NCBI GenBank assembly: GCA_026395335.1
Contig: JAPLYW010000025.1
Span: 1 to 38,281 of the forward strand
Direction of reading: 5' to 3'
Source of the DNA: Candidatus Shapirobacteria bacterium
Lineage (GTDB): Bacteria; Patescibacteriota; Microgenomatia; PFEM01; JAPLYW01
DNA length: 38,281 bases
Shown: positions 3,815 through 38,015 of the stretch, in pieces
Position numbering within the stretch: the first letter of the stretch is position 1
Layout: every line of letters begins with the position of its first letter
The notes under the pieces: generated by a model
The model's input: only the letters and a program-made list of their open reading frames with translations
Told to the model about the DNA's origin: nothing
Database searches by the model: none
Translations under genes and position numbers: made by a program

Positions 3815-3829
3815 AAAAAGAATAAGATA

Positions 3830-4117
3830 CTAATTTTTTTTCTGAAGCATTTCTTTTAACGTTCGTGGTTTTTCGTCTTTTTCTTCTTGGTTTTTACCCT
3901 TTTTGACATAGCCTTTAGCGGCTGCTTGTTTAGCCTGGAATTTTTCAATTCGGCCTTGAGTATCAACAAATTTCAGTTCACCGGTAAAATAAGGATGACA
4001 ACTGGAACAAATTTCTACTTTAATTTCCGGTTTAACAGAACCAGTTACAAAACTTGCACCACAGGCACAAGTAACTTTAGCTTCTGGATACCAAGTTGGG
4101 TGAATATTTTTCTTCAT
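3830..4117 (-). CDS. rpmE: 50S ribosomal protein L31
   Basis: [23 protein letters not shown]...[10 protein letters not shown] is the L31 Zn-ribbon signature, followed by a Lys/Glu-rich C-terminal extension. Confidence 0.9.
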
Positions 4118-4126
4118 GATATGAGA

Positions 4127-4155
4127 ATTTTATCATAAATTGACCTGGCTGGCAA
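4127..4155 (-). promoter_or_regulatory. Candidate promoter of rpmE-prfA (TTGCCA-17-TAAAAT)
   Basis: On the minus strand: TTGCCA (4155-4150), 17-nt spacer, TAAAAT (4132-4127), then 9 nt to ATG at 4117. No SD. Confidence 0.4.
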
Positions 4156-4163
4156 GATTGTTA

Positions 4164-4192
4164 TTGCTTTTTATGAGCTAAATTTTTAAAAT
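4164..4192 (+). promoter_or_regulatory. Candidate promoter of the phosphohexomutase gene (TTGCTT-17-TAAAAT)
   Basis: TTGCTT 4164-4169, 17-nt spacer, TAAAAT 4187-4192, then 5 nt to ATG 4198. Confidence 0.3.
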
Positions 4193-4197
4193 GAATT

Positions 4198-6747: not shown

Positions 6748-6763
6748 GCCTTTATAATATCAC

Positions 6764-6910
6764 AAATAAAGTAAGCTTGTTTCTCTCCGCCAGCTGGCGG
6801 ATCGAAATAAAGCAAGCTTGTTTCTCGTAAAACTCGAAATAAGTAAGACCTTGTTTCTCGTAAAACTCGAAATAAGTAAGACCTTGTTTCTCGTAAAACT
6901 CGAAATAAGC
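6764..6910. repeat. Tandem array of the CTTGTTTC...GAAATAAG repeat family (one variant unit plus 2.8 copies of a 33-bp unit)
   Basis: The variant unit spans 6776-6816 and carries the palindrome TCCGCCAGCTGGCGGA (6786-6801). Identical 33-bp units CTTGTTTCTCGTAAAACTCGAAATAAGTAAGAC lie at 6817-6849 and 6850-6882, with a partial unit at 6883-6909. Confidence 0.95.
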
Positions 6911-6924
6911 TTTTTTAGTAAATT

Positions 6925-10819: not shown

Positions 10820-11263
10820 TCAATAAAAAAGCGTAAAGACGATAATTAAAACCACGATTTGATAAATTAAACCCCAAGGCAATTTAGCCCGCTGATGTAA
10901 AGTATTATGGAATTTTTCTAAAACGTTGATCGGAAAAGGTCTTTTGCCAAAAAAAAGAGCCGGAAATTCCAATAAATCAGGTAAAATTCCCAAAAAAACC
11001 GCTACCCATAAAAGAGGGGAGAACGGTTTGCCTTTTTGAAAAAAGATAAAAACTAAACTAAAACCAACAATTACGTCAACCAGTGTTTCTAAAACCGCTT
11101 TTTTTTTGCTTTTGTGGCCGTTGGTTAAGCCGGTACCAGTATCCCAATGGGGGACAATATCTAAAAGATAATGACTAGCTAAGACTAGGGGGAGGCTTAA
11201 TTGAGGAGGAAAGATACGGCTGACAATTAACGCTGAAATTAAGGAATGGCTAGTTGATAACAT
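10820..11263 (-). CDS. Small integral membrane protein, possibly a YdjM/DUF457-like membrane-bound hydrolase
   Basis: Four to five hydrophobic helices with His-containing motifs (STSHSLISALIV, SHYLLDIVPHWD). The family call is tentative. Confidence 0.35.
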   Translation of the reverse strand: MLSTSHSLISALIVSRIFPPQLSLPLVLASHYLLDIVPHWDTGTGLTNGHKSKKKAVLETLVDVIVGFSLVFIFFQKGKPFSPLLWVAVFLGILPDLLEFPALFFGKRPFPINVLEKFHNTLHQRAKLPWGLIYQIVVLIIVFTLFY

Positions 11264-11277
11264 ATCTAAGTGTAATC

Positions 11278-11307
11278 ATTATAAAATGTTATAATTATGA
11301 GTGTCAA
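11278..11307 (-). promoter_or_regulatory. Candidate promoter of the 11263 membrane-protein gene (TTGACA-18-TATAAT)
   Basis: On the minus strand: consensus TTGACA (11307-11302), 18-nt spacer, consensus TATAAT (11283-11278), then 14 nt to ATG 11263. The -35 lies inside the first copy of the 28-bp direct repeat. Confidence 0.5.
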
Positions 11308-11351
11308 TGAATAATTATTATTCTAATTATGAGTGTCAATGAATAATTATT
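11292..11351. repeat. Two direct copies of a 28-bp sequence, period 32 bp
   Basis: TAATTATGAGTGTCAATGAATAATTATT occurs at 11292-11319 and 11324-11351, and its first 8 nt recur at 11357-11364 around the lgt start codon. Each copy contains the mini-ORF ATGAGTGTCAATGAATAA (MSVNE*). Confidence 0.9.
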
Positions 11352-15068: not shown

Positions 15069-16232
15069 ATGAAAAACAATTTTTTTAGTCTTTTAAAGAA
15101 AGATATAAAAACAAGAGCCAGGATAGGTAAAATAAAAACTCCTAATGGAGAAATTTTAACACCGACTTTTGTACCGGTAGGCAGTCAAGCTACCGTAAAA
15201 AGCCTAACCCCACAGGATTTAAGAGAAATTGGTGTTCAGGTTTTTTTCGCTAATACTTATCATTTATATTTGAGACCAGGAGTAGAAGTTATAGAAAAAT
15301 TAGGAGGATTACATAAATTTATGAATTGGGATAGGCCTTTAATGACTGATAGTGGTGGTTTTCAGGTATTTTCTTTAGGAAGAAAAAATCGATCCTCAAC
15401 GCTTAGTCCGTGTGCCAATTCATTAGTTAAGATAGATTATAATGGTGTGACTTTTTATTCCCACCTTGATGGTTCAAAACATTATTTTACACCAGAAAAA
15501 TCAATTGAAATTCAACAAAAATTAGGAGCCGATATAATGATTGCTTTTGATGAATGTGCTCCTTACCCAACTACTTATAATTATGCCAAAACTGCCATGG
15601 AAAGGACCCACCGTTGGGCTTTAAGAAGTTTAGAGGCGGTGGTAGTAGGAAGAAGACAAAAACAATTTCTTTTCGGTGTGATCCAAGGCAGTACGTTTAG
15701 AGATTTGCGTCAAGAATCGGCCAAATTTATTAGTTCATTGGCTTTTGATGGTTTAGCTATTGGTGGAGTGGCGGTGGGGGAATCAAAAAAAGAGATGGCT
15801 CAAATTTTAGATTGGATAATGCCTATTTTACAAAAAGAAAAAGAAGTTTGTCCAATACATTTGTTAGGTGTTGGTGAAATTGACGATATTTTTACAGCAG
15901 TGGAGAGGGGAATTGACACAATGGATTGTGTAATGCCCACACGTTTGGCTCGTGTGGGTCACATTTTGGCTAAAAGAAAAAACTTTACTTATGATATTAA
16001 TAAATCTATTTTTGCTAATGATCCTAGCCCGATTGATAAAAATTGCCCTTGTTATGTTTGCCATAATTTTTCTAAAGCTTATCTTCATCATCTTTTCCGA
16101 GCCAATGAGCTTTTAGCTTATCGTTTAGCAAGTTACCATAATCTCTTTTTTATAGAAGATCTTTTTGTTAAGATAAGAGAAGCAATTCGGAAAGATGAGT
16201 TTTTATCTTTGAAAAAACAATGGCTAAAATAG
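15069..16232 (+). CDS. tgt: Queuine tRNA-ribosyltransferase
   Basis: TPTFVPVGSQATVK, DSGGFQVFSL, and the Zn site CPCYVCHNFSKAYLHHL. Confidence 0.9.
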   Translation: MKNNFFSLLKKDIKTRARIGKIKTPNGEILTPTFVPVGSQATVKSLTPQDLREIGVQVFFANTYHLYLRPGVEVIEKLGGLHKFMNWDRPLMTDSGGFQVFSLGRKNRSSTLSPCANSLVKIDYNGVTFYSHLDGSKHYFTPEKSIEIQQKLGADIMIAFDECAPYPTTYNYAKTAMERTHRWALRSLEAVVVGRRQKQFLFGVIQGSTFRDLRQESAKFISSLAFDGLAIGGVAVGESKKEMAQILDWIMPILQKEKEVCPIHLLGVGEIDDIFTAVERGIDTMDCVMPTRLARVGHILAKRKNFTYDINKSIFANDPSPIDKNCPCYVCHNFSKAYLHHLFRANELLAYRLASYHNLFFIEDLFVKIREAIRKDEFLSLKKQWLK

Positions 16233-19597: not shown

Positions 19598-20054
19598 CTA
19601 AAGAGGAGTAGAAAATAATATAAAAATAAATAAAGATGGCAAGATGGTTGAAAGAGAATAAGTTATTGATTGTTTATTGGATATCTCTCTATTGTTTTCT
19701 CCCCTAAATTGAGAGATAAGGTTATTAGAGGATAAGATATTTTGAATTTAGTATAATGTCGCACAATGTAGCTTTTGCGACGTCTTTTGAATTCACACTC
19801 GGGCGGAGAAGGCCTAATTAAAAATTTTAAAAAGAAAAAAATAACGATAATTTTTCCTAAATTTTTTTTCTTCAGTCCTTTATTTTTTCTTATTTCTCCA
19901 CTAATAAGACCTCTATCTGAATTTTACTGATCCCCTAATAAAACCCGAATATTTAGGTTCAATTAGCCTCAAATTAGTTTTATGACTTCCCTACACTTGA
20001 ACTAGAAGAAAGATGGTGCTCAAACTGAGAAAGAAAGACAGGATTGTTTTTCGA

Positions 20055-20195
20055 ATAAGAACCTGTCGAAACGACAGAACCTTGTCCAAAACGATAAGAA
20101 CCTGTCGAAACGACAGAACCTTGTTTTTCAAATAGATAATGTCGTACAATATTATATAAGAACCTATCGTTTAAGACGACAGAACCTTGTCCAAA
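20055..20195. repeat. 141-bp direct repeat, copy A, containing three hairpin sub-repeats
   Basis: Base-for-base identical to 20259-20399 by manual comparison. It contains AAGAACC-CTGTCGAAACGACAG-AACCTTGT twice (hairpins 20063-20077 and 20102-20116) and a variant with ATCGTTTAAGACGAC. Confidence 0.95.
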
Positions 20196-20258
20196 TTTAC
20201 AGAATTTGGGTTGGGTTAACAGTAGTGCTTAAATTGAGGAAGAGGAGTTGTTTTTATT

Positions 20259-20399
20259 ATAAGAACCTGTCGAAACGACAGAACCTTGTCCAAAACGATA
20301 AGAACCTGTCGAAACGACAGAACCTTGTTTTTCAAATAGATAATGTCGTACAATATTATATAAGAACCTATCGTTTAAGACGACAGAACCTTGTCCAAA
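20259..20399. repeat. 141-bp direct repeat, copy B
   Basis: Identical to 20055-20195 at an offset of 204 bp. The 45-55 bp upstream of each copy (20011-20054 vs 20221-20258) are only roughly three-quarters identical. A fourth-type sub-repeat AAGAACCTGCCTCTGGCAGAATCTTGT follows at 20402-20428. Confidence 0.95.
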
Positions 20400-20439
20400 A
20401 TAAGAACCTGCCTCTGGCAGAATCTTGTTTTTAAAAAAA

Positions 20440-21396
20440 ATGACCGAAGAAAAGAATAATCTACTGCGTACTGAGACCGATCGACTGATTGAAGAGTTCC
20501 TCGAGTACCTAGAAGTTGAAAAAAATTGTTCCCCTCTTACCATTAGAAATTATAAACACTATTTAAAACGTTTTTCTGATTGGTTAAAGGCTAATTCACC
20601 ACAAATTGATCCAGCTTCATTTAATCTCGAAATTATCAAGAAATATAGGGTATTTTTATCCCGATTTACAGCCCCAAACGGTGATCCCCTGGCGCGTGTC
20701 ACTCAAAGCTACCATGTGATAGCTTTGAGGGCCTTTTTGAAGTTTTTGATCAAAAATGACTATAGGACAATTGCCCCTGAAAAGATTGAGCTACCTAAGA
20801 TAGAAAGTCGAAGCTTAAAATTCTTAACAACCGAACAAGTTGAACTTCTTTTGTCTCAACCGCAAGTTTCTAATCCAAGAGAGTTACGGGATAAAGCTAT
20901 CTTAGAAACTTTATTCTCAACTGGTCTTCGTGTTAGCGAGTTGACTAAGTTAAACCGTGATCAGATTGACCTTAACCGCCGTGAATTCGGCGTAATTGGT
21001 AAAGGTGGACATGCTAGGGTTGTTTTCCTTTCAAAACAGGCTGTTGAATGGATAAATAAATATTTGGTTTCGCGTCGGGATAAATGGCAACCCCTTTTTA
21101 TACGAATCGTCAAAAATCCGGAAGTTACCGAAGATGGTCGTAAGTTACGTTTAACACCTCGTTCTATTCAAAGGCTTGTAAAAAAATATGTTCGTAAAGC
21201 CAGAATTCCGGTTGATGCCACAGTTCATACTTTACGTCACTCTTTTGCTACTGATTTATTAATGGCCGGAGCGGATATTAGAAGCGTCCAAGAATTATTA
21301 GGGCATAAAAATATCTCCACTACTCAGATTTATACTCACGTTACTAATCGGCAACTTCGTGATGTTCATGAAGCATTTCATGGTAAAGGGAAATAA
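20440..21396 (+). CDS. Tyrosine site-specific recombinase, XerC/XerD family
   Basis: SAM-like N-terminal domain (LEEFLEYLEVEKNCSPLTIRNYKHYLKRF) and catalytic residues R (GLRVSEL), K (GKGGHAR), HxxR (HTLRHSFAT), H (LLGH) and Y (TQIYTHV). ATG 20440 is preferred over the track's TTG 20425. Confidence 0.85.
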   Translation: MTEEKNNLLRTETDRLIEEFLEYLEVEKNCSPLTIRNYKHYLKRFSDWLKANSPQIDPASFNLEIIKKYRVFLSRFTAPNGDPLARVTQSYHVIALRAFLKFLIKNDYRTIAPEKIELPKIESRSLKFLTTEQVELLLSQPQVSNPRELRDKAILETLFSTGLRVSELTKLNRDQIDLNRREFGVIGKGGHARVVFLSKQAVEWINKYLVSRRDKWQPLFIRIVKNPEVTEDGRKLRLTPRSIQRLVKKYVRKARIPVDATVHTLRHSFATDLLMAGADIRSVQELLGHKNISTTQIYTHVTNRQLRDVHEAFHGKGK

Positions 21397-25517: not shown

Positions 25518-28138
<2,621 letters not shown>

Positions 28139-28195: not shown

Positions 28196-29935
28196 ATGCC
28201 TACTGCCCAAAAATTAAATTCTCAAGCTGCGCTTGCTTCAAATACAATTGCCGATGTTTTGGCTTCAGCAGGTTTTCTATCAGAGGATAAATTAAAAGCT
28301 GTTAAATTAGAACAAGTTAATACAGGGCGATCTTTAAAACAAATTATTTTAGAACATAATTTTGCTAATGATGAACAGGTTTCAAAAGCGGAAGCACAAA
28401 TTTATAATATTCCTTTTATTGATCCTAACGAAAAAGCGATTAGTCCGGAAAGTTTAAGTCTTATTCCCCGCTCGGTTGCTGAACGCTATAATTTAATCCC
28501 TTTTGATTATAATCGTTTAAATAATGAACTTTCAGTGGCGTTAGCCAATCCTTTGGATTTGGAAGTAATTGAATTTATTGAAAAAAAAGCTAAAGCTAAA
28601 ATTAAGCCTTTTATGGCGACAACGGAAAAAATTCAGCAGGCAGTAGCTTCTGCTTACGCTCAAACTCTTTCAGCTGATGTTAAAGCGGCTTTAAAAGAGG
28701 TATCTCCAGGTATTTCTGAAACTCAGACAGTTGATATTACTTCTTTGGGAAATGTTATTCGTGAAGCGCCGGTGGCTAAAATCGTAGCTACAATTTTAGA
28801 ATTTGCTATTAAATCAAGATCTTCTGATGTTCATATTGAACCTCAAGAAGATAGAACCAGAGTCCGTTATCGAATTGATGGTATTTTACATGAGAAATTA
28901 ATTTTACCTAAAAAAGTTCATGATGCAGTTGTTTCGCGAATTAAAATCTTATCGGGAATGAAAATTGATGAAAAAAGAGTTCCTCAAGATGGTCGTTTTA
29001 ATTTTAAGGCCGATAATCAAGAAGTAGATTTACGGGTTTCTTCTTTACCGACTGTTTTTGGAGAGAAAATCGTAATGCGGTTATTGAAAAAATCAGGCGG
29101 TGTTCCTGATTTACCGGAATTAGGTTTACGCGGACGAGCTTTAAAAAATTTAGAGGATTCAATTTTACGTCCGCATGGTATTATTCTTATTTGCGGTCCA
29201 ACCGGTTCAGGTAAAACTACAACTTTATATTCTGTTTTATCAAGAATTAACACAAGCAAGGTTAACATTGTTACTTTAGAAGATCCGGTTGAGTATCAAA
29301 TACAAGGGGTTAACCAAGTTCAAGTTAATCCTGCCGCTGGTTTAAGTTTTGCTTCTGGTATGAGAAGCTTTTTACGTCAAGACCCAAACATTATTATGGT
29401 TGGTGAAATTCGTGATAAAGAAACCACTGAGTTGGCTATTCAAGCTTCGTTAACCGGCCATTTAGTTTTTTCAACTCTTCATACTAATGATGCGACTGGG
29501 GCTATTCCTCGTCTTTTAGATTTGGGTGGTGAGCCATTTTTATTAGCTTCAGCCATGACTTGTATTGTAGCTCAAAGAGTTTTAAGGAAAATTTGTGAGC
29601 ATTGTAAAGAAAGTTATACTCCCCTGCCGGAAGTTATTGAAGATATTAAAAAATCGTTAGGGAATCTTTATCCTAAAAATGGTGAACTTAAACTTTTTCG
29701 TGGTAAAAAATGTTCTGAATGTAATAATACCGGCTATATAGGTCGGGTAGGTATTTTTGAAGTTTTACCGATTTCTGAAAAAATTGCTCGTCTAACTTTG
29801 GAAAGAGCCGCAGCCAATGAAATTCAAAAACAGGCTTTAGAAGAAGGAATGATTAGTTTAGAACAAGATGGTCACTTGAAAGCCATTGAGGGAATAACTA
29901 CGATAGAAGAAGTATTGCGTGTTGCCCGAGATTAA
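28196..29935 (+). CDS. pilB: Type IV pilus assembly ATPase PilB (GspE family)
   Basis: N-terminal T2SSE_N domain, Walker A GPTGSGKTT, Asp/His boxes and the tetracysteine motif CEHCKE...CSECNNTGYIGR. Confidence 0.9.
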   Translation: MPTAQKLNSQAALASNTIADVLASAGFLSEDKLKAVKLEQVNTGRSLKQIILEHNFANDEQVSKAEAQIYNIPFIDPNEKAISPESLSLIPRSVAERYNLIPFDYNRLNNELSVALANPLDLEVIEFIEKKAKAKIKPFMATTEKIQQAVASAYAQTLSADVKAALKEVSPGISETQTVDITSLGNVIREAPVAKIVATILEFAIKSRSSDVHIEPQEDRTRVRYRIDGILHEKLILPKKVHDAVVSRIKILSGMKIDEKRVPQDGRFNFKADNQEVDLRVSSLPTVFGEKIVMRLLKKSGGVPDLPELGLRGRALKNLEDSILRPHGIILICGPTGSGKTTTLYSVLSRINTSKVNIVTLEDPVEYQIQGVNQVQVNPAAGLSFASGMRSFLRQDPNIIMVGEIRDKETTELAIQASLTGHLVFSTLHTNDATGAIPRLLDLGGEPFLLASAMTCIVAQRVLRKICEHCKESYTPLPEVIEDIKKSLGNLYPKNGELKLFRGKKCSECNNTGYIGRVGIFEVLPISEKIARLTLERAAANEIQKQALEEGMISLEQDGHLKAIEGITTIEEVLRVARD

Positions 29936-29953: not shown

Positions 29954-31009
29954 ATGGAAATTAAAGAATTGCTTGAATATACTATTAATAAAAATGCTTC
30001 TGATCTTCATTTGTTGTCAGGAGTACCGCCAATGATAAGGATTAACGGCGTTTTGTTACCTATTACCGGCAAAGAAATTTTAACAGCGGAAGAAACCAGT
30101 AATTTAGTTTTTTCTTTAGTTAATAATGAACAAAAGGAAATTCTTCTTGTTAATAAGGAATTGGATTTTTCTTTTGATTATCAAGGTCAGGCTCGTTTTA
30201 GGATTAATGCTTATTATCAAAAAAGTAATTTGGCAGCGGCTTTAAGATTGATACCAAATAAAATTCCTAAGATTAATGAACTTAATATGCCGGAAATCTG
30301 TCATACTTTTACTCAATTAAAACAGGGATTTATTTTGATTACTGGTCCGACTGGTCAGGGAAAATCAACTACTTTAGCCTCCATTATTGATGAAGTTGCT
30401 CAGACTCGTCCGATTCATATCGTTACTATTGAAGATCCGATTGAATATCTTTTTACTCATCAAAAGGCAATTGTTTCTCAAAGGGAAATTCGGGCTGATA
30501 CTCATTCTTGGCAAATTGCCTTGCGTTCTTGTTTAAGAGAAGACCCGGATGTAGTTATGATTGGAGAAATGCGTGATTATGAAACTATTGCTTCGGCTCT
30601 AACTATTGCTGAAACAGGTCATTTAGTTTTTGCTACTCTTCACACAAATTCTGCAGCACAAACGATTAATCGTATTATTGATGTTTTTCCAGCTAACCAA
30701 CAAGACCAAATTAAAACTCAGCTTTCTTCAACCTTAGAAGCTATTATTTCTCAAAGACTTCTTCCTTCTTTGACTGGTGGTCGTATTCCTGCTACGGAAA
30801 TTTTAGTTAATACACCTGCTATTAGCAACGCTGTTCGTGAAGGTAAATCTGCAATGATCGATACTATTTTACAAACTTCTGCAGAAATGGGGATGAGAAC
30901 CTTAGAGATGGATTTAGCTCGTTTGGTAAAAGAAAGAAAGGTTGATCTTGAAACAGCTCGGGCTTTTGCTTTGAGACCAGAAGAATTAATGAGATTAACT
31001 AAAGGATAA
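29954..31009 (+). CDS. pilT: Type IV pilus retraction ATPase PilT
   Basis: 351 aa with ASDLHLLSGVPPMIRING, Walker A GPTGQGKST, and PilT-type motifs (AIVSQREI, GHLVFATLHTNSA). Confidence 0.9.
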   Translation: MEIKELLEYTINKNASDLHLLSGVPPMIRINGVLLPITGKEILTAEETSNLVFSLVNNEQKEILLVNKELDFSFDYQGQARFRINAYYQKSNLAAALRLIPNKIPKINELNMPEICHTFTQLKQGFILITGPTGQGKSTTLASIIDEVAQTRPIHIVTIEDPIEYLFTHQKAIVSQREIRADTHSWQIALRSCLREDPDVVMIGEMRDYETIASALTIAETGHLVFATLHTNSAAQTINRIIDVFPANQQDQIKTQLSSTLEAIISQRLLPSLTGGRIPATEILVNTPAISNAVREGKSAMIDTILQTSAEMGMRTLEMDLARLVKERKVDLETARAFALRPEELMRLTKG

Positions 31010-31012
31010 GGT

Positions 31013-31112
31013 ATGGATAAATTTAAATAAGCAAAGCTTGTTTTCACTTATATGGAAAAGTTCAAATATCAATCTTTTTTTATTAACATTAAAAAAATCT
31101 TGTTTTCAATTT
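31013..31112. repeat. Two degenerate copies of the pilC 5' end upstream of the real start
   Basis: ATGGATAAATTTAAATAA (31013-31030, MDKFK*) and ATGGAAAAGTTCAAATAT (31052-31069, MEKFKY, out of frame with pilC) resemble ATGGATAAATTCAAATAT at 31113-31130. Each true or pseudo start at 31052 and 31113 is preceded by A(G/T)CTTGTTTTCA (31036-31047, 31097-31108). Confidence 0.8.
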
Positions 31113-32315
31113 ATGGATAAATTCAAATATAAAGCTAAAGATAAAGATAGTAAAACAGTTGAAGGTTTGGTTGAAGCGGCCGATATTAATCAAGCTGCTA
31201 AGATTCTTAGGGAACGTAATCTTTTAGTTATTACTGTCAATAAAAAAAACGAGGATTTATTTGTCCAAGTTAAAAAAGGTTTTGACAGAATTGGTATTCA
31301 GGATAAAGTTAACTTTACCCGTCAACTTTCAACTATGGTGAATGCTGGTCTAACAATTACTGAGTCGTTGAGTATTTTGGAGCTTCAAACTTCTCCAGCA
31401 ATGAGCAATTTAATTACCGATGTTTTACATCAGGTTGAAAGTGGTATAAGTTTGACCGATGCTTTACAAAAACATAGTAACATTTTTGACCAAATCTATA
31501 TTGCTTTAATAAAAGCTGGAGAAACCGCCGGTGTTCTTGATAAAATCTTATTAAGGTTGGCTGATAATTTAGAGAAACAGAATGAATTCCGCCAAAAAAT
31601 TAAAGGAGCAATGATTTATCCAATCGTGGTTATTGGTGGAATGATTGGGGTTGTAGCGGTCATGATTATTTTTGTTATTCCAAAATTAACAGCGATTTAT
31701 GAAGAATTTCAAGCAGATTTACCGATATCGACAAAAATTTTAATTGGGATTTCTAAATTTGCCACTCATTATTGGTTTTTGGCTTTAGGTGTTTTAGCTG
31801 CTTTATTTTTTCTTTTTCGTTATTTATCTCATAATTACTATTTTCGTCGACAGTTTGACCAATTTTCATTTAAGATACCTATTATCGGCAAATTAAGAAA
31901 AGCGATGATTTTAACTGAATTTACCCGTACCCTAGGCCTTTTAGTGGGCAGTGGTATTTTAATTGTTGATGCGATTGAGGTTACCACAAAATCATTAAAT
32001 AGTCCTAATTATGAAGAAAAAATGAAGGAAGTTTCAAAAGAGGTGGAAAAAGGTTTACCGTTGGCTATGTCTTTAGCTAAAACAGAAATTTTTCCGCCAA
32101 TTTTGCCGCAAATGGTAGCGGTTGGTGAAGAAACGGGGAAACTGGACGAAGTTTTAGTTAAGGTTTCCACTTATTTCGAGCAACAGGCTGATGCGATGGT
32201 TAAGGGATTGACAGCCGCTTTAGAGCCACTTATCATGGTAGTATTAGGAGTCGGTGTTGGTTTTTTAATGATGGCTATTATTATGCCAATTTATAATCTT
32301 ACTAATCAGTTCTAG
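31113..32315 (+). CDS. pilC: Type IV pilus platform protein PilC (GspF family)
   Basis: Two GspF repeats (FTRQLSTMVNAGLTITESL... and FTRTLGLLVGSGILIVDAI...) and 3 TM helices. ATG 31113 (MDKFKYKAKDKD) is preferred over the track's TTG 31038. Confidence 0.88.
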   Translation: MDKFKYKAKDKDSKTVEGLVEAADINQAAKILRERNLLVITVNKKNEDLFVQVKKGFDRIGIQDKVNFTRQLSTMVNAGLTITESLSILELQTSPAMSNLITDVLHQVESGISLTDALQKHSNIFDQIYIALIKAGETAGVLDKILLRLADNLEKQNEFRQKIKGAMIYPIVVIGGMIGVVAVMIIFVIPKLTAIYEEFQADLPISTKILIGISKFATHYWFLALGVLAALFFLFRYLSHNYYFRRQFDQFSFKIPIIGKLRKAMILTEFTRTLGLLVGSGILIVDAIEVTTKSLNSPNYEEKMKEVSKEVEKGLPLAMSLAKTEIFPPILPQMVAVGEETGKLDEVLVKVSTYFEQQADAMVKGLTAALEPLIMVVLGVGVGFLMMAIIMPIYNLTNQF

Positions 32316-32375: not shown

Positions 32376-32408
32376 TATATAAATAACAGAATAAATTATA
32401 GAAAGGGG

Positions 32409-33056
32409 GTGAAAAAAATTAAAAATTCAAAATCAAAAATTCAAAATTTGGGGTTTGCCGTTCGGCTGAAGCCTCAGGCTGAAGCCCTGAGGAACGTAGT
32501 GACGAAGGGTTTTACCATGATTGAATTGTTAATTGTAATTGCTGTTTTGGGAATTTTAGCAGTAGCTGTTTTAGCCACTATTAACCCAATTGAGCAAATT
32601 AATCGCGGCCGTGATACAGGTTCCCGAAGTGATGCAGAACAACTTTTATCAGCCATTGATCGTTATAATGCTACCCAAGGGATTTGGCCTTGGCAGGCGA
32701 TAAAGTCTGATGATGATGCTGTTGTTTGGCAATTAGTTTCCGCCCTTAATGATGCGGATAACTGTCCTTTATTAGATAAATTAGCTCAGGGAGGTGGAGC
32801 TTGTACTTCAGGTGCCGATGAAGTTAAAGCAGCTTTTACAGCTCGTTTAAGAGGTACAACATATAATTCTTTATGGATGGAATATGGAGGTGAAGCTGGA
32901 AATAGCGTTTACATTTGTTTTCAGCCACAATCAGGATCTTTTCGGACAGAGGCTCAAAGAAGATGTAATGAAGGTGTTCCAGTAGATTTTCCTACAGGAG
33001 CTGATTGTGCTACTTGTATTAGTACCCCAACCGCTTGTTATATCTGTCTGCCTTAA
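32409..33056 (+). CDS. Type IV pilin-like protein (candidate major pilin) with long leader
   Basis: Prepilin signal ...TKG|FTMIELLIVIAVLGILAVAV with Glu at +5. It sits between pilC and pilD and has a Cys-rich C-terminal half. The start is uncertain: GTG 32409 abuts the AAGGGGG run, and in-frame TTG 32448 and GTG 32499 are alternatives. Confidence 0.75.
   Translation: MKKIKNSKSKIQNLGFAVRLKPQAEALRNVVTKGFTMIELLIVIAVLGILAVAVLATINPIEQINRGRDTGSRSDAEQLLSAIDRYNATQGIWPWQAIKSDDDAVVWQLVSALNDADNCPLLDKLAQGGGACTSGADEVKAAFTARLRGTTYNSLWMEYGGEAGNSVYICFQPQSGSFRTEAQRRCNEGVPVDFPTGADCATCISTPTACYICLP
32472..32492 (+). other. Hairpin inside the leader region of the 32409 pilin gene
   Basis: CCTCAGG-CTGAAGC-CCTGAGG, a 7-bp perfect stem. 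It overlaps the direct repeat GGCTGAAGCC (32464-32473 and 32477-32486). Confidence 0.7.
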
Positions 33057-33844
33057 TGACTATTTTTATTTTTGTTTTCGGCATAGCTATAGGCAGTTTT
33101 ATTGATTGTTTAGTTTATCGACTGAACAAAGAAAAAAACTTTTGGAAAAGGTTTTTAAAAGGAAGATCTTATTGTCCGAGATGTAAGCATCAATTGGCTT
33201 GGTTTGAAAATATTCCTCTTTGTTCTTTTTTTTTACAAAAAGGCAAATGTCGTCATTGCCATTCTTTAATTTCCTGGCGATATCCTTTAGTGGAATTATT
33301 TACGGGATTAATTTTTGTGGGAGTTTATAAATGGTGGTTAATTCCTAATTTTAATCCTTCTTCTGATTTTTATATTTTTATATCTTTATTTTGTCAAAAA
33401 CAAACTTATTTATATCTTTATATCTTTCTTGTTTTATTGGCAGTTTTTCTTTCTGATTTATTTTATTGGACTATCCCCGACCAGATTACTTTTCCGGCAA
33501 TTTTAATTTTTTTTATTTGGAATATCATTCAGGGTCAATGGTTATCTATTTTGGCTGGTTTGGCCGGAGTGATTTTTTTCCTTCTTTTGGTCTTCTTAAC
33601 TAAAGGAAAAGGAATGGGTCTTGGTGATGTAAAATTAGTTGGTTTAATGGGTTTATTTTTGGGTTTTCCTAGGTTAATTGTGGCTTTATATTTAGCTTTC
33701 TTGACTGGGGCCATAACCGGTGTCATACTGATTTTAATTAAAAAGAAAAGAATAGATAGTCGGATTCCTTTTGGTCCTTTTCTTGCCCTATCAGCTTTTG
33801 TCGCTTTATTTTGGGGAGAAAAAATCTGGCAATTTTTTCTATGA
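33056..33844 (+). CDS. pilD: Prepilin peptidase PilD (A24 family)
   Basis: N-terminal Cys motifs (CPRCKHQL...CRHCHSLI), two catalytic Asp regions (FLSDLFYWTIPD and GKGMGLGDVKL) and a multi-pass membrane topology. ATG 33056 (TAATG overlap with the pilin stop) is preferred over the track start 33035. Confidence 0.85.
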   Translation: MTIFIFVFGIAIGSFIDCLVYRLNKEKNFWKRFLKGRSYCPRCKHQLAWFENIPLCSFFLQKGKCRHCHSLISWRYPLVELFTGLIFVGVYKWWLIPNFNPSSDFYIFISLFCQKQTYLYLYIFLVLLAVFLSDLFYWTIPDQITFPAILIFFIWNIIQGQWLSILAGLAGVIFFLLLVFLTKGKGMGLGDVKLVGLMGLFLGFPRLIVALYLAFLTGAITGVILILIKKKRIDSRIPFGPFLALSAFVALFWGEKIWQFFL

Positions 33845-34587
33845 ATAATCGTAAAGGATTTACTTTAATAGAACTTCTTATTGCTGTAGCCATTATTGGT
33901 ATTTTAATCTTAGCTACCTTAAGCCTTTATCGTTTACAATTGCTTAAGGGTCGGGATGCTCGGAGGAAAGCGGATTTGGTTAAGATACAGAAAGTCCTTG
34001 AGGATTATTTAAACGATCATATTTGTTATCCGGAAAGTTTAGAATGTGGTTCTGATTTTTCTCCTTACCTTTCTTCAGTTCCTTGTGATCCGGTTAATGT
34101 TAATAATAATATTTATTTTTATTCTATTTCTCAAGATACTAATTGTAAAAAATGGTATAAAATTTTTACCACGTTAGAATATGATAAAGATCCGATAATC
34201 AAAAAAATTGGTTGTACCCCAGAATTTTGCGGTCCTTACAATTATTTGGTTTCTAGTCCGAACGTTGAATCATTAAAACGTCAGTTGGGAGAAATTTATC
34301 CTTGGGGTGAACCATCACCAACACCAATACCAATTTTAGTACCGACTAATACGTCTGTACCGACAATAACCAATACACCTACTCCGACGTCAATATCAAC
34401 ACCAACTAATGTTCCAGCTCCAACCAGTATCCCGACTTTTGTTACTCCCTGCATTGGAGGTTGGTTTACCTGTATTGGTCAAGGTGGTCATTGTAATACA
34501 AGCTATGAAGGGGCGTCGGGAGCGGTTTGTAGCTCAACTTGTAATAATTGTAAAGCAATAAGTTGTAGTGATCCAACTTGTTATTAA
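33841..34587 (+). CDS. Type IV pilin-like protein with Pro/Thr-rich linker and C-terminal Cys-rich module
   Basis: MNNRKG|FTLIELLIAVAIIGILI, then a GspG-like helix (KGRDARRKADLVKIQKVLEDY), then PSPTPIPILVPTNTSVPTITNTPTPTSISTPTNVPAPTSIPTFVTP, then a 49-aa tail with 9 Cys. The ATG overlaps the pilD TGA (ATGA). Confidence 0.8.
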   Translation: MNNRKGFTLIELLIAVAIIGILILATLSLYRLQLLKGRDARRKADLVKIQKVLEDYLNDHICYPESLECGSDFSPYLSSVPCDPVNVNNNIYFYSISQDTNCKKWYKIFTTLEYDKDPIIKKIGCTPEFCGPYNYLVSSPNVESLKRQLGEIYPWGEPSPTPIPILVPTNTSVPTITNTPTPTSISTPTNVPAPTSIPTFVTPCIGGWFTCIGQGGHCNTSYEGASGAVCSSTCNNCKAISCSDPTCY

Positions 34588-34609
34588 CCCGTGTTACAAT
34601 AAAAATAAG

Positions 34610-35062
34610 ATGAAAGAAAAAAGAAATATCCAAAGAGGGTTCACCCTTGTCGAACTTTTAGTGGTGATGGCTATTCTAGGTTTATTAGCAACTATTGGTT
34701 TAGGAAGTTTTATGAGTACTCAAATTAAGGGTCGTGATAGTCAGAGGAAAAGTGATTTAGGCCAAATACAAAAAGCTTTAGAAATGTATTATAATGATTA
34801 TGGGCAATATCCTGACTCTTTACCGGCTGGTGGCAGCAGTTGGGAAGATACTAAAGGGACTTTATATATGAAGGCAATACCTGCAGACCCTAAATTTGGC
34901 AATTATGCTTATTCTTCTAATGGTTCTTCTTATCGTCTTTATGCCAGATTAGAAAATACTCAAGATTCTTGTTTTACCAATGGTCTTTGTAAAGATTATG
35001 GTCTTTTATGTGGAACTGCCAATTGTAATTATGCTATGTCTAGCCAGAATATAATGCCATAA
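34610..35062 (+). CDS. Type IV pilin-like protein (GspG-like fold)
   Basis: MKEKRNIQRG|FTLVELLVVMAILGLL, KGRDSQRKSDLGQIQKALEMYYND, and C-terminal YRLYARLEN. ATG 34610 is preferred over the track start 34568. Confidence 0.8.
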   Translation: MKEKRNIQRGFTLVELLVVMAILGLLATIGLGSFMSTQIKGRDSQRKSDLGQIQKALEMYYNDYGQYPDSLPAGGSSWEDTKGTLYMKAIPADPKFGNYAYSSNGSSYRLYARLENTQDSCFTNGLCKDYGLLCGTANCNYAMSSQNIMP

Positions 35063-35616
35063 TGAAAAAAACTAAAAAGAAAATTATCCATTTTTGGCAG
35101 AGGCAAGCGGGTTTTACTTTCGAAGAAAGGAAGACTCGAAGAGGGTTCACTCTGATAGAGCTTCTAGTGGTTATTTCTGTTATTGGTCTTTTAACCGCTT
35201 TAATTATGGTTAATTTTAATGCGGCTCGGGAAAGAGCCAGAGATGTACAACGCAAGTCTGATTTGGATCAGATTAAAAAATCTTTAAGAATGTATTATAA
35301 CGATGCTAATCTTTATCCAGAAGCCGCTAGCGGTAATAGGATTAAAGCTTGTGGTAATCCAACAACCACCACTTTTGAATGGGGAACAATGTCTTTTACT
35401 TGTAGCAGTATGGTTTACATGAAGCTTTTACCTCATGATCCATCATGGAAACAAGTTGGTGATAATGATTATAATTATACTCAAGCTGCTTCTGGCCAGG
35501 ATTTTTGTTTATGGATAGCTTTGGAAAATAGTTCTGATGGTGATTTAACTAATTCTCAAACACGTTGTTCTAGCTGTGGTCTTAATGGTGCTAATTACGT
35601 TGTTTGCGCAGATTAA
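35062..35616 (+). CDS. Type IV pilin-like protein with 28-aa leader containing a duplicated GFT motif
   Basis: MKKTKKKIIHFWQRQAGFTFEERKTRRG|FTLIELLVVISVIGLL, RARDVQRKSDLDQIKKSLRMYYND, and LWIALENS. Confidence 0.8.
   Translation: MKKTKKKIIHFWQRQAGFTFEERKTRRGFTLIELLVVISVIGLLTALIMVNFNAARERARDVQRKSDLDQIKKSLRMYYNDANLYPEAASGNRIKACGNPTTTTFEWGTMSFTCSSMVYMKLLPHDPSWKQVGDNDYNYTQAASGQDFCLWIALENSSDGDLTNSQTRCSSCGLNGANYVVCAD
35119..35140 (+). other. Leader-embedded hairpin, type A
   Basis: TTCGA (35119-35123) pairs with TCGAA (35136-35140) across the loop AGAAAGGAAGAC. The counterpart at 36141-36162 reads TTTGA...TCAAA. Confidence 0.55.
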
Positions 35617-35640
35617 AAGGGAGGTGAATAAAAATTTAAA

Positions 35641-36117
35641 ATGAAAAACTTAAAAAAAATGTTTACCCTGAGGATCCGCCAGCTAACGGAGACAAAGGGG
35701 TTCACTCTGATAGAGCTTTTAGTGGTTATTTCTATTATTGGTATTTTGGCCTCTTTAACATTAGTTAGTTATAGCGGGGCGCAAAAGCAAACCCGGGATA
35801 CCCAAAGAAGAAGTGATTTAAATCAATACCGGAATTCTTTGGAAAACTATGCCGGTTCCAATAACGGTCTTTATCCGCTTGGAATAAATACTATAGCTAA
35901 TCTTTGTGGTACTGGTAAACCTTTAACCACCAGTTATATTGCCAGTTGTCCGGCTGACCCAATTACAACTTATCTTTATGGTTTTTACTCGTCTTCTACA
36001 GGTGATGGTTATGTTATTTATGCTCAGTTAGAAACTGGCGGTTATTGGGAAGTCTGTTCAATCGGTAAATCCGGAAAAGTTACGGTTAAGCCGACTGATA
36101 GCAGCTGTGATTTATGA
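35641..36117 (+). CDS. Type IV pilin-like protein with 20-aa leader
   Basis: MKNLKKMFTLRIRQLTETKG|FTLIELLVVISIIGIL, QKQTRDTQRRSDLNQYRNSLENY, and VIYAQLETG. Confidence 0.8.
   Translation: MKNLKKMFTLRIRQLTETKGFTLIELLVVISIIGILASLTLVSYSGAQKQTRDTQRRSDLNQYRNSLENYAGSNNGLYPLGINTIANLCGTGKPLTTSYIASCPADPITTYLYGFYSSSTGDGYVIYAQLETGGYWEVCSIGKSGKVTVKPTDSSCDL
35675..35690. repeat. Degenerate copy of the 16-nt palindrome (TCCGCCAGCTAACGGA)
   Basis: Differs at 2 positions from TCCGCCAGCTGGCGGA and lies in the same leader context as 37486-37501. Confidence 0.8.
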
Positions 36118-36551
36118 AAAAGAAATTTAGTGGTTTTACTTTTGAAGAAAGGAAGACTCAAAGAGGATTCACCCTAATTGAATTACTGGTAACAATGACG
36201 ATTATGGCGATGTTGATGGGAATTGCTTTAGTTTCCTATCAGGGAGCCAGAAAGTCGGCGCGTGATGGGAAAAGAAAAACTGATTTAGAACAAATTCGTA
36301 GCGCTTTGGAAATGTGTAGGACCGATTCTGGCAGTTATCCGATTGGCAATTTGTCTTCAGGCGGTACGATTATCTGTAATACTAAAACGTATCTGACAAT
36401 TCCTGCTGATCCTTTAACTGATAGAATTTATTCTTATACTGGTACGGCTAATACTTATACGTTATGCGTTACGTTAGAAGTTAGCAGCGGAACAGTAATT
36501 GGTTGCGGTTCTTGTACTTTAAATTGCAATTATAAAACAGTAAACCCATAA
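36114..36551 (+). CDS. Type IV pilin-like protein with 18-aa leader containing a duplicated GFT motif
   Basis: MKKKFSGFTFEERKTQRG|FTLIELLVTMTIMAML, ARKSARDGKRKTDLEQIRSALEMC, and TLCVTLEVS. ATGA overlap with the upstream gene. Confidence 0.8.
   Translation: MKKKFSGFTFEERKTQRGFTLIELLVTMTIMAMLMGIALVSYQGARKSARDGKRKTDLEQIRSALEMCRTDSGSYPIGNLSSGGTIICNTKTYLTIPADPLTDRIYSYTGTANTYTLCVTLEVSSGTVIGCGSCTLNCNYKTVNP
36141..36162 (+). other. Leader-embedded hairpin, type A (second copy)
   Basis: TTTGA (36141-36145) pairs with TCAAA (36158-36162), with the same loop as at 35124-35135. Confidence 0.55.
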
Positions 36552-37024
36552 TGAAGAAAAACTGCCTAAAGTCTCCCGGCTTCACGCTTGTCGAACTTCT
36601 TATTGTTATGACTATTATTACTCTTCTTTTTGCTATTGGTGTAGTTCAATATAATCAATTTAATCGCAGGCAAGTTTTAACTAAAGCTAAAGACGAATTA
36701 ATTAGTAATTTAAGATTAATTCAGGGAAAATCTTTGGCTGGTGAAAAGCCAGAAAATTGTTTAGCAGAAACTCTAGAAGGTTTTAAATTAATTTTTGCTG
36801 ATAATCATCAAAATTATAAAATTGTTGTTGTTTGTAATGGAGAATTTGATGTTAAGACTTCTTTAGCTTTTCCAACGGGAGTGATTAAGCAATCAGGCCC
36901 AGATGAAATTTTTTTCAAGGTTTTAAGCCAGGGAACAGATATTAATGGTCAAGCAGAAATTATTTTATCCGGTTTTAATGAGACTAAAACGATTATTGTT
37001 ACCGGAACGGGAGAAATAAGATGA
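36551..37024 (+). CDS. Minor pilin-like protein (GspH/FimT-like)
   Basis: MKKNCLKSPG|FTLVELLIVMTIITLLFAIGV followed by a QYNQFNRRQVLTKAKDELISNLRLIQ helix typical of FimT/GspH-type pseudopilins. TAATG overlap with the upstream gene. Confidence 0.65.
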   Translation: MKKNCLKSPGFTLVELLIVMTIITLLFAIGVVQYNQFNRRQVLTKAKDELISNLRLIQGKSLAGEKPENCLAETLEGFKLIFADNHQNYKIVVVCNGEFDVKTSLAFPTGVIKQSGPDEIFFKVLSQGTDINGQAEIILSGFNETKTIIVTGTGEIR

Positions 37025-37036
37025 TAATTAAGCCAT

Positions 37037-37059
37037 CTTGTTTCTCGTAAGCTCGAAAT
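37037..37059 (+). repeat. Single member of the CTTGTTTC...GAAAT repeat family between two pilin genes
   Basis: CTTGTTTCTCGTAAGCTCGAAAT is nearly identical to the 33-bp unit at 6817-6849 (CTTGTTTCTCGTAAAACTCGAAAT) and ends 3 nt before ATG 37063. Confidence 0.85.
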
Positions 37060-37062
37060 TAA

Positions 37063-37452
37063 ATGAAAAAAATTTTCAATTTCGCCAATCGCGGCCAATC
37101 AATTATTGAAGTTGTTATCGCCTTAGCTATAGTAGCTATTGTTATCGTTGGTTTGGTAAAAGTGACAACAATTTCGATGAATAATGGCAGTTTTGCTCGT
37201 GACCAACAAACAGCCACTAAGTATGCTCAAGAAGGATTGGAAAATGCAAGAAAACTTAAGGAAGAAGATATCAATGTTTTTTGGAAGAAATCAGGGGTAG
37301 AAACAGAAATAATCGGTAAATTTGTTCGGCAAATAACTTACACTATTATAGAGGCTAATCAAACAATGAAAGTTGAAGTTTTGGTAACTTGGCAGGATAG
37401 CAAAGGAACCCATCAATCAAGCTTAGAAACATCTTTAACTAAATGGAAATAA
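37063..37452 (+). CDS. Minor pseudopilin-like protein with degenerate prepilin signal
   Basis: MKKIFNFANRG|QSIIEVVIALAIVAIVIVGLV. Gly at -1 and Glu at +5 are retained. Confidence 0.55.
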   Translation: MKKIFNFANRGQSIIEVVIALAIVAIVIVGLVKVTTISMNNGSFARDQQTATKYAQEGLENARKLKEEDINVFWKKSGVETEIIGKFVRQITYTIIEANQTMKVEVLVTWQDSKGTHQSSLETSLTKWK

Positions 37453-38015
37453 TGAAAAAACAAAATTCTGGTTTTACTCTGAGGATCCGCCAGCTGGCGG
37501 AGACGAAGGGTTTTACAATGATTGAGATTTTGGTGGTAATCGGGATTTTAGGAATAATTGCTGTGATTGGTTCTAATATGTTTTTTACAACCCTTAAAGC
37601 TTCCAACAAAACTAAAGTCTTAGCAACTGTTAAACAAAATGGCGATTATGCCCTTTCAGTTATGGGAAGAATGATCAGAGATTCTCAGAAAGTAATTACT
37701 AATTCCGAAACACCTAATAAAATATGCGAAATAGGAATGAATAAAATTAAGGTTAAAAGACTGGACGGTAGCGAGATAGAGTTTAGTTGTGATCAGGAAG
37801 GGACTGTAAATGGCAACATTGCTTCTAATTCTGCCCGTTTAACTAGCAGTGAAGTTAAAGTTGATAGTTGTTCATTTGATTGTAGCACTAAAGGTGAATT
37901 TTATCCTCAAAGCGTAGTTATTAGTTTTACTTTAAGTCAAGCTACTGTCACTACTCGTGTTGAAGAACAAGCTTTAGTTAATTTTAAAACTACCATAAGT
38001 GTGAGAAATTTTTAA
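37452..38015 (+). CDS. Minor pilin-like protein with duplicated GFT leader
   Basis: MKKQNSGFTLRIRQLAETKG|FTMIEILVVIGILGIIAV. ATG 37452 (TAATG overlap) is preferred over the track's ATG 37443. Confidence 0.7.
   Translation: MKKQNSGFTLRIRQLAETKGFTMIEILVVIGILGIIAVIGSNMFFTTLKASNKTKVLATVKQNGDYALSVMGRMIRDSQKVITNSETPNKICEIGMNKIKVKRLDGSEIEFSCDQEGTVNGNIASNSARLTSSEVKVDSCSFDCSTKGEFYPQSVVISFTLSQATVTTRVEEQALVNFKTTISVRNF
37486..37501. repeat. 16-nt perfect palindrome TCCGCCAGCTGGCGGA inside the pilin leader-coding region
   Basis: Identical to 6786-6801 in the intergenic repeat array. GC-rich in an AT-rich window. Confidence 0.95.

Follow-up and report, generated by a model that had tools for sequence, protein, structure and literature searches.

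Why do five of nine neighbouring prepilin genes encode leaders of 14-33 residues or longer, when their orthologues mostly keep the short basic leader (about 5-10 residues) of type IVa-like prepilins? The question arises in a type IV pilus cluster on 38,281 nucleotides of chromosomal DNA (G+C of 34%) from a Candidatus Shapirobacteria bacterium (contig JAPLYW010000025.1), hereafter the window, in which the prepilin genes A to I follow pilC. Type IV pili are central to host attachment, and probably to DNA uptake, in the candidate phyla radiation (CPR)/Patescibacteria, and to our knowledge almost nothing is known about the control and evolution of pilin genes in these bacteria. Genes A, D, E, F and I each carry an in-frame insert between an upstream xFT and the canonical cleavage motif G↓FT (the arrow marks the cut made by the prepilin peptidase PilD), while B, C, G and H have short leaders. 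At a probability of roughly 0.6, the leader-coding segment is a hot spot, or safe harbour, for short palindromic repeats and tandem duplications that are translated, discarded by PilD and spread by recombination, the inserts looking more like tolerated repeat DNA than dedicated regulatory RNA.

The nine genes resemble type IVa-like prepilins, whose motif consists of Gly (-1), Phe (+1) and Glu (+5) ahead of a hydrophobic helix, and they have an A24 peptidase and pilB, pilT and pilC as neighbours. The Pfam N_methyl model scores above its cut-off in all nine, solely at the downstream G↓F and never at the upstream xFT. An earlier note on this DNA had described five long and four short leaders, a division confirmed on re-reading the open reading frames (ORFs), and its nucleotide counts are exact: positions 35110-35142 (D) and 36132-36164 (F) differ at 2 of 33 nt, with 13 differences in the next 33 nt, and positions 35668-35697 (E) and 37479-37508 (I) differ at 3 of 30 nt, with 8 in the next 30 nt. 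Its statement that the module is better conserved than the adjacent pilin N-terminus holds for both pairs, and E and I are indeed not close paralogues, sharing 26% identity in the mature protein past the first 30 residues. The direct repeat of GGN-TTY-ACN codons said to bracket each insert does not extend to E, whose first motif is ATG-TTT-ACC (Met-Phe-Thr). Within the window, pattern searches find each module core in these pilin leaders alone, with 0 matches expected by chance; several of the related elements lie elsewhere too.

The DNA encoding the mature N-termini of D and E (35143-35200 versus 35698-35755, about 55 nt) shows 6 differences in 60 nt, yet the two genes carry different modules, and the remainder is about 39% identical at the protein level. 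The genes are therefore mosaic, with blocks that are separately exchangeable, and the near-identical stretch suggests that these adjacent paralogues recently underwent gene conversion here.

The comparison set combines 85 related pilus loci found with PilC (0.97 Mb) and four added loci, giving 89 Shapirobacteria-like loci (about 1 Mb; L numbers below). The genomes closest by PilC are metagenome-assembled, several of them labelled Candidatus Shapirobacteria (CPR/Microgenomates lineage). These loci were scanned for G↓FTxxE motifs (328 hits, 307 after filtering), and their pilins were assigned to the window paralogues. For every window pilin, the majority of orthologues carry leaders of 4-10 residues, such as MKKG and MKRKNLG. 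Leaders of at least 14 residues are encoded at 67 of the 295 different pilin 5' ends. Alignments of orthologous sites with and without an insert are clean, and they place the additional DNA directly 5' of GGNTTYAC in leader-coding DNA, usually next to or overlapping the Gly(-1) codon. All inserts are stop-free multiples of 3 nt, and no out-of-frame allele occurs among the motif hits, before or after filtering.

One and the same module occupies different pilins across genomes. Module 1, the 33-nt unit of D and F, is hosted by C, D, F, a B-like and an I-like pilin; a 33-nt KQACFSQARNK (CFS) unit by B, F and I; and module 2c by A and E. B and C serve as empty-site controls in the window, yet modules are present in orthologues of both elsewhere. 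L006, L007, L008 and L028 match module 1 (GGTTTTACTTTCGAAGAAAGGAAGACTCGAAGA) at 33/33 nt, and their PilC proteins are 57-79% identical to that of the window. Exchange also reaches strain level: L006, L007 and L008 are 99.4-99.8% identical over 7-9 kb, and the major-pilin leader of L006 is wholly unlike that of L007 and L008, containing a 60-nt module and differing within bounds set by a TTG start and GGTTTTACG. To judge by the aligned sequences, this difference is a cassette swap.

For at least one to several families, the conserved entity appears to be the nucleotide sequence rather than the peptide. The palindrome GCCATGCCTGCCGACAGGCAGG (GCCATG-CCTGCC-GACA-GGCAGG) is read as GHACRQAG in L061 and, with one extra base, as AMPADRQG or AMPAGRQG in L032 and L072. 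An L004 variant has CCTGTC/GACAGG in place of CCTGCC/GGCAGG, with both sides of the stem changed and pairing kept. At 15737 in L013, GGTGCGGG(G)TTTAC is repeated in two different frames with a complementary segment between the copies. One palindrome is read in two frames, and some internal repeat periods, such as the 13 nt of module 2b, are not multiples of three.

Related elements are also found outside pilin genes, in several sequence families (Table 1). The 16-nt palindrome of module 2a has a second, intergenic copy in the window, nested in a 33-nt repeat unit; this composite recurs in L011 with a different loop, and copies related to the palindrome occur in LigA of L004, in L011 and in L022, with families F2, F3 and F5 in several contexts. 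The 33-nt repeat itself lies in the pilT 5' untranslated region (UTR) of L013 and in intergenic arrays of L027 and L028, and in other genomes it forms the in-frame KQACFSQARNK leader module of B, F and I orthologues. A two-hairpin element in L004 stands between genes and also inside a pilin leader, and the CCTCCCTT..GGAGG hairpin belongs to the Shine-Dalgarno-bearing 5'UTR of some genes and is inserted in frame in the leaders of others. The only Shine-Dalgarno sequence of one L004 pilin gene comes from a hairpin element of 42 nt (AAACCCACCCTACCCTCCCTTGAGGAAAGGAGGGTTTAAAAG) at 15540-15585, upstream of its start; the L005 orthologue (about 15370) has an empty site and no Shine-Dalgarno sequence.

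Conserved housekeeping and pilus-assembly proteins are also affected. In L004, the NAD-dependent DNA ligase LigA (3247-5409, minus strand) contains three GC-rich inserts in frame, of which at least two form hairpins; none of them is present in L002, and L005 is without two of them and shows a shorter, related insert in place of the third. PilD of L004 (12142-12972) carries three in-frame inserts, and a HolB-like (DNA polymerase III delta'-like) gene in L022 (6526-7197, minus strand) contains the TCCGCC palindrome in frame. The inserts of these three genes are mostly palindromic, and those of each gene are missing from at least one sister-genome orthologue. Element load differs between genomes, with L004 heavily colonised and L005 nearly free. 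Within the window, strong GC-rich hairpins in the coding regions of tgt (15934-15964, -17.6 kcal/mol) and gyrB (26246-26298, -19.2 kcal/mol) are possible further cases.

Pilin leaders are nonetheless the preferred site, GC-rich perfect hairpins reaching 0.76 per kb there versus 0.19 per kb elsewhere. In 9/14 cases the last stem base falls 0 to 4 nt into the Gly codon, and several elements end in ..GGAGGGTTT(C), which equals the Gly-Phe codons; it is plausible that the G↓F codons offer a compatible or microhomologous junction for such elements. Of the options raised in the earlier note, the idea of a hairpin element inserting, or spreading through gene conversion, at the codons of the cleavage site comes closest to the evidence, given the sporadic distribution, the leader swap and the non-pilin copies; the target duplication attached to that option is not borne out for module 1.

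The members of the module 2 family share their ends (xTTTRCC-YTGAGGA ... GYGACGAAG-GGT) but differ in their interiors. Module 2b has two copies of GGCTGAAGCC with a period of 13 nt, and positions 32472-32492 hold a CCTCAGG/CCTGAGG hairpin; the 31-nt core of the module is identical in L013, and the insert is absent from most A orthologues. Orthologues of E have mainly MKKG-type leaders, with module 2c in place in the L013 orthologue, and prepilin I orthologues in L013 and L011 show empty sites. The direct repeat flanking the pilin I insert matches at 8/9 nt, and across the family the first 'Gly' position is often Trp, Met or absent. The idea that the modules contain an internal start codon and its Shine-Dalgarno sequence (GTG in pilin A, Met at +3) was rejected, L013 having GCG for GTG and the in-frame G-F-T being conserved.

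Module 1 stands partly apart, and a peptide-level role is possible for it. The prepilin D leader consists of a complete leader (MKKTKKKIIHFWQRQAG), then FT, then module 1, and MKKKIxHFxQxxxG leaders resembling its first part stand alone in other pilins. The L028 orthologue of D has three tandem copies, and the F copy is identical at 41/42 nt to L028 at 14887, the remaining gene being visibly more diverged. Wider searches yield the variants GFTFKGRKTRRG, GFTFKEKKARRG and GFSFVERKTRSG as well as arrays of two or three diverged units. In near-canonical copies the first GGTTTTACT is constant (7/9) and the resident second copy varies, leaving a classical target-site duplication unsupported for this module; an IS200/IS605-type insertion 3' of TTAC was set aside as it conflicts with which flanking-repeat copy is constant. 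The unit mimics G↓FTxxE followed by a basic tail, and its EERKTRRG portion is similar to KEKRNIQRG from the normal leader of window pilin C. Its simplest origin would be tandem duplication or fusion of leader-plus-cleavage-site blocks, followed by gene-conversion homogenisation.

Protein searches place module 1 in a wider setting. Word-index searches with leader-only or N-terminal queries returned no usable matches. Searching 50%-identity representatives with the first 62 residues of pilin F retrieved pilins that mostly align from residue 13-16 on, which means that module 1 is rare among those representatives; the same search exposed other GFT..GFT leaders. The public pilins P0006, P0025 and P0147 have three consecutive G-F-T-like leader motifs, for example RGFTLISKACKGFTLISRACERG↓FTLIELL, so duplication of the cleavage block reaches beyond the families studied.

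The preferred reading, a permissive leader segment that collects repeats, would operate as follows. Elements would arrive at the GGN-TTY-AC motif, which is highly conserved, either by inserting there or through template switching, and would multiply by unequal recombination between flanking direct repeats. Gene conversion or homologous recombination would then transfer them between tandem paralogues and strains, with the conserved ribosome-binding/start region and the N-terminal helix codons serving as recombination arms. The insert would be translated as a portion of a longer basic leader, and PilD would still cut at the distal G↓F beside the hydrophobic helix. With the leader removed and the mature pilin unchanged, the site would tolerate inserts. 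Likeness between copies would reflect recent spread or homogenisation rather than constraint on a riboregulator, any effect of the hairpin on mRNA being secondary.

Several observations weigh against this reading. The census of non-pilin copies covers about 1 Mb around pilus loci, not whole genomes, and modules 1, 2b and 2c are seen there in pilin leaders only. Module 1 is not GC-rich and its palindrome is weak; its identity at 33/33 nt despite 57-79% PilC identity needs either very recent transfer or sequence-level constraint, and its peptide-like consensus across distant genomes suggests selection beyond mere tolerance. The position next to the Gly codon is strict, which could also mean function, since a hairpin with UUU(U) right after it looks like a terminator. 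No transposase or REP-associated tyrosine transposase (RAYT) appeared in Pfam scans of the window ORFs, beyond which no search was made; those scans gave only a XerC/D-like integrase.

Among the alternatives, selected cis-regulatory mRNA hairpins survive best, although we regard them as doubtful. The hairpin would act as a translation-coupled attenuator, pause site or stability element setting pilin amounts, ending on the Gly codon just ahead of UUU(U)AC and using the leader as the sole free space in a compact overlapping operon. The hairpin or palindrome that the earlier note attributed to every insert is predicted to fold with unequal strength: I folds at -21.3 kcal/mol (z = -3.1) and A at -28.7 kcal/mol (z = -2.7), with z of -2.3 for D, -1.5 for E and -0.6 for F and values near 0 for the four short-leader genes. 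Across the related loci, predicted folding is stronger for long leaders than for short ones (median z about -1.0 vs 0.0, Mann-Whitney p = 8e-8). The abutment of stems on the Gly codon, the few base pairs changed on both sides with pairing kept, terminator-like hairpins such as CCTGTCGGCAGACAGG+TTTTACATT and relatives' modules such as that at L004 16865, and the Shine-Dalgarno sequence supplied by the L004 element and lacking in L005 all fit such a role. However, an Rfam 15 scan of the whole window gives no match in 32409-38015 even at E <= 1, and no window module is picked up by a simple terminator and promoter consensus scan. A comparison of the sense with the antisense strand, aimed at any dependence of the hairpins on G-U pairs, shows no difference in folding and speaks neither for nor against an RNA role. 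Many unrelated sequences share one site, most orthologues are insert-free, and the same elements lie within LigA and PilD, and in both orientations. Covariation in the proposed TTCGA/TCGAA stem of module 1 is weak: it pairs in 88.5% of cells versus 84% in shuffles and is broken at one pair in 5/16 units. The structured-RNA option of the earlier note gains little, a dedicated riboregulator has no positive support from these tests, and the sporadic distribution argues against it. Two single-function readings were also rejected: a DNA uptake sequence, given too few copies and several unrelated sequences, and a palindromic operator for a single regulator, given palindromes that differ among modules.

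A broader functional version, similarly tentative, joins attenuator or stability hairpins that set stoichiometry with a GFTFxE pseudo-substrate or additional cleavage site for PilD, making the leader a hitherto unrecognised regulatory compartment that strains exchange as a cassette. Its peptide component taken alone is a distinctly unlikely explanation: the 11-residue G-F-(T/S)-F-x-E-(R/K)-K-T-(R/Q)-(R/K/S) peptide would imitate the pilin N-terminus in soluble form and present an extra PilD site or pseudo-substrate, delaying or tuning the processing of particular pilins or releasing a small peptide. The unit does occur in one to three tandem copies in many pilins and many genomes. Among the 16 different units, F1, F3 and K7 never vary, and E5 and T8 are mostly kept despite some synonymous change (TTT/TTC, ACT/ACG, AAG/AAA), a pattern that even the decayed L009 copy, DFPFKEKKSRR, retains. 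Against this, entropy by codon position 1, 2 and 3 is 0.37, 0.47 and 0.57, the third being only slightly higher, which is not what strong selection on the protein would leave; several units have Asp or Asn instead of the first Gly, Pfam N_methyl misses the upstream copy, and the unit is absent from most orthologues. Trp or Met at -1 (or no Gly) in the module-2 family and the element read in two frames put both outside its reach and rule out a decoy cleavage site, another option of the earlier note, as a general explanation; for the 11-codon GFTFxE unit a decoy stays possible.

A phase or expression switch, with leader repeats slipping in copy number and turning pilin genes on and off as with the CTCTT repeats of Neisseria opa, is very improbable. 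Copy number does vary (one versus three units of module 1, one versus two CFS repeats), and pilin A has a 13-nt repeat and AAAAATT x5 whose periods are not multiples of three; but the main units of 33 nt keep the frame when copy number changes, the non-triplet repeats are imperfect and few, and out-of-frame alleles number 0 among the motif hits. Least credible of all is programmed translational bypassing, with take-off at the first Gly-Phe-Thr, landing on the second and the hairpin skipped to give a normal short-leader prepilin: matched flanking codons in some modules (such as GGTTTTACT, and GGTTTTACA in pilin I), gaps of 24-51 nt with a hairpin and a GA-rich Shine-Dalgarno-like sequence just 5' of the second site would suit it, but stop-free inserts in multiples of 3 nt make bypass needless and place the frame under selection, and many modules, namely those of E and A and the GHACRQ, PLSLRS and CFS families, have no matching take-off codon.

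Table 1. Genes, leaders, modules and repeat copies discussed in the text, in window coordinates
Feature	Position	Strand	Description
pilB	28196-29935		T2SSE match
pilT (putative)	29954-31009		assigned from reading the ORF
pilC	31038-32315		44-77% identity to PilC ORFs of related loci
Prepilin A	32409..33056	+	first gene after pilC; ORF; Pfam N_methyl at residues 33-55 only
Prepilin peptidase PilD (peptidase A24)	33035..33844	+	Pfam A24_N_bact and Peptidase_A24; between pilins A and B
Prepilins B and C	33841..35062	+	short leaders MNNRKG and MKEKRNIQRG; empty-site controls
Prepilin D	35062..35616	+	ORF and Pfam N_methyl
Prepilin E	35641..36117	+	ORF and Pfam N_methyl
Prepilin F	36114..36551	+	ORF and Pfam N_methyl
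Prepilins G and H	36551..37452	+	short leaders
Prepilin I	37452..38015	+	ORF and Pfam N_methyl
Leader A			..LGFAVRLKPQAEALRNVVTKG↓FT
Leader D			..AGFTFEERKTRRG↓FT
Leader E			..MFTLRIRQLTETKG↓FT
Leader F			..SGFTFEERKTQRG↓FT
Leader I			..SGFTLRIRQLAETKG↓FT
Module 2b	32448..32507	+	60-nt in-frame insert LGFAVRLKPQAEALRNVVTK in prepilin A
Module 1	35110..35142	+	33 nt/11 codons, GFTFEERKTRR; directly 5' of Gly codon at 35143 (prepilin D)
Module 2a copy	35659..35697	+	MFTLRIRQLTETK in prepilin E; weakened palindrome CCGCCAGCTAACGG
Module 1 copy	36132..36164	+	GFTFEERKTQR (prepilin F); 2 differences from D copy
Module 2a	37470..37508	+	GFTLRIRQLAETK in prepilin I; perfect 16-nt palindrome TCCGCCAGCTGGCGGA at 37486-37501
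Tandem array of 33-nt repeat	6760..6915	+	CTTGTTTCTCGTAAAACTCGAAATAAGTAAGAC; intergenic
Second copy of 16-nt module-2a palindrome	6786..6801	.	intergenic, nested in 33-nt repeat unit
33-nt repeat copy	37026..37058	+	5'UTR of prepilin H; family D13, 88% identity
Element family patterns			TCCGCC-N3-5-GGCGGA; GTCCCGA-N4-TCGGGAC; CCTCCCTT..GGAGG; 33-nt CTTGTTTCTCG..CTCGAAAT unit

The pilus cluster follows a series of housekeeping genes, namely those for S6, SSB, HisRS, DnaB, EF-P, TGT, GyrA/B and a XerC/D-like integrase, and orthologous loci have T2SSF at the pilC position. Prepilin A, likely the major pilin, lacks a convincing canonical start in the region 32376-32450, the sole GTG (32409) lying within the Shine-Dalgarno-like AAAGGGGGTGA; its L013 orthologue (about 11200-11312) has zero in-frame ATG, GTG or TTG. 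Close relatives have a TTG start 9-10 nt past AGGAGGTGA, where the window and L013 have ATT, and prepilin A likely starts at this ATT. The first codons of pilin A (32414-32448) comprise AAAAATT x5, in imperfect 7-nt copies whose period is not a multiple of three; slippage there would shift the frame, and the tract could be one of phase variation.

Two further features lie apart from the pilus genes. Direct repeats of 152 nt (20044-20195 and 20248-20399, 98% identical), each holding an 18-nt tandem repeat (AGAACCTGTCGAAACGAC x3.4), lie just upstream of the XerC/D-like recombinase gene (20425-21396). A 232-aa release-factor-like ORF at 3116-3814 (minus strand), adjoining the L31 gene on its downstream side, matches the second half of the PCRF domain and the RF-1 domain only; it could represent either a release factor of reduced length or a prfB with a frameshift.

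Among known systems, the nearest analogues appear to be in-frame Rickettsia palindromic elements (RPE) and repeats of the repetitive extragenic palindromic (REP) or miniature inverted-repeat transposable element (MITE) type. The earlier note knew of no described equivalent, and a literature search on CPR pilin leaders, Patescibacteria REP, in-frame palindromes and bypassing found none; the concept nevertheless belongs with known in-frame palindromic repeats. RPE are selfish palindromic repeats of about 100-150 bp found in frame within protein-coding genes. Like them, the elements described here are dispersed palindromes of a reduced AT-rich genome, in frame at permissive sites of conserved proteins and presumably translated, with one palindrome at several unrelated loci and with presence or absence differing between orthologues (LigA, PilD and pilins). 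They are set apart by length (21-60 nt) and by their CPR phylum, as well as by a hot spot at one sequence, the prepilin cleavage-site codons, whose host peptide is cleaved off. REP sequences, including bacterial interspersed mosaic elements, are repetitive extragenic palindromes associated with RAYT transposases. They share with the present elements imperfect 20-40-nt palindromes in many copies, between operon genes and in tandem arrays, with stems kept and loops varying. REPs are extragenic by definition, whereas many copies here are intragenic and in frame and some intergenic, and a RAYT is absent from the Pfam scans of the window ORFs, the extent of that search. RPE are mentioned in PMC1779305 and PMC10969869, the latter a review that also bears on MITEs such as the Correia elements of Neisseria. 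MITEs are likewise small and non-autonomous, with inverted ends (here, for example, AAACCC(T/A)CC ... GGAGGGTTT), and can supply a Shine-Dalgarno sequence; the present elements are smaller, and target-site duplication is inconsistent, the first GGTTTTACT of module 1 being constant and not gene-specific.

More distant comparisons concern coding inserts and pilin leaders. Yeast mitochondrial GC clusters or 'byp' elements and T4 gene 60 are similar in having GC-rich 27-55-nt hairpin inserts in coding AT-rich DNA, sometimes with matching flanking codons, but the inserts here are in frame and stop-free, so presumably translated rather than bypassed. Type IVb and Tad/Flp pilins have leaders of 15-40 residues that end in Gly and are removed by an A24 peptidase; the genes here are type IVa-like (Phe +1, Glu +5, pilB/pilT/pilC/pilD neighbours) with short-leadered orthologues, the extra length being a recent insert and not a family trait. 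Neisseria pilE/pilS and opa resemble this locus in the mosaics produced by recombination of tandem pilin paralogues and in repeats within signal-sequence DNA. Here, however, the variable part is the discarded leader rather than an exposed C-terminal domain, silent cassettes are absent, and the main repeat units, unlike those of opa, keep the frame. New features are the small size, the CPR host, the hot spot at a single motif and the use of a cleaved leader.

On the preferred reading, these tiny genomes carry very short palindromic or tandem repeat families inserted in frame even in essential genes (LigA, PilD), and prepilin leader-coding DNA is a place where they preferentially land and are exchanged. 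Such pilins will mislead gene callers and signal-peptide predictors through their long leaders, two apparent cleavage motifs and non-canonical starts. If it is true that the modules affect expression or processing, they would provide a simple, portable means of tuning pilus composition between strains.

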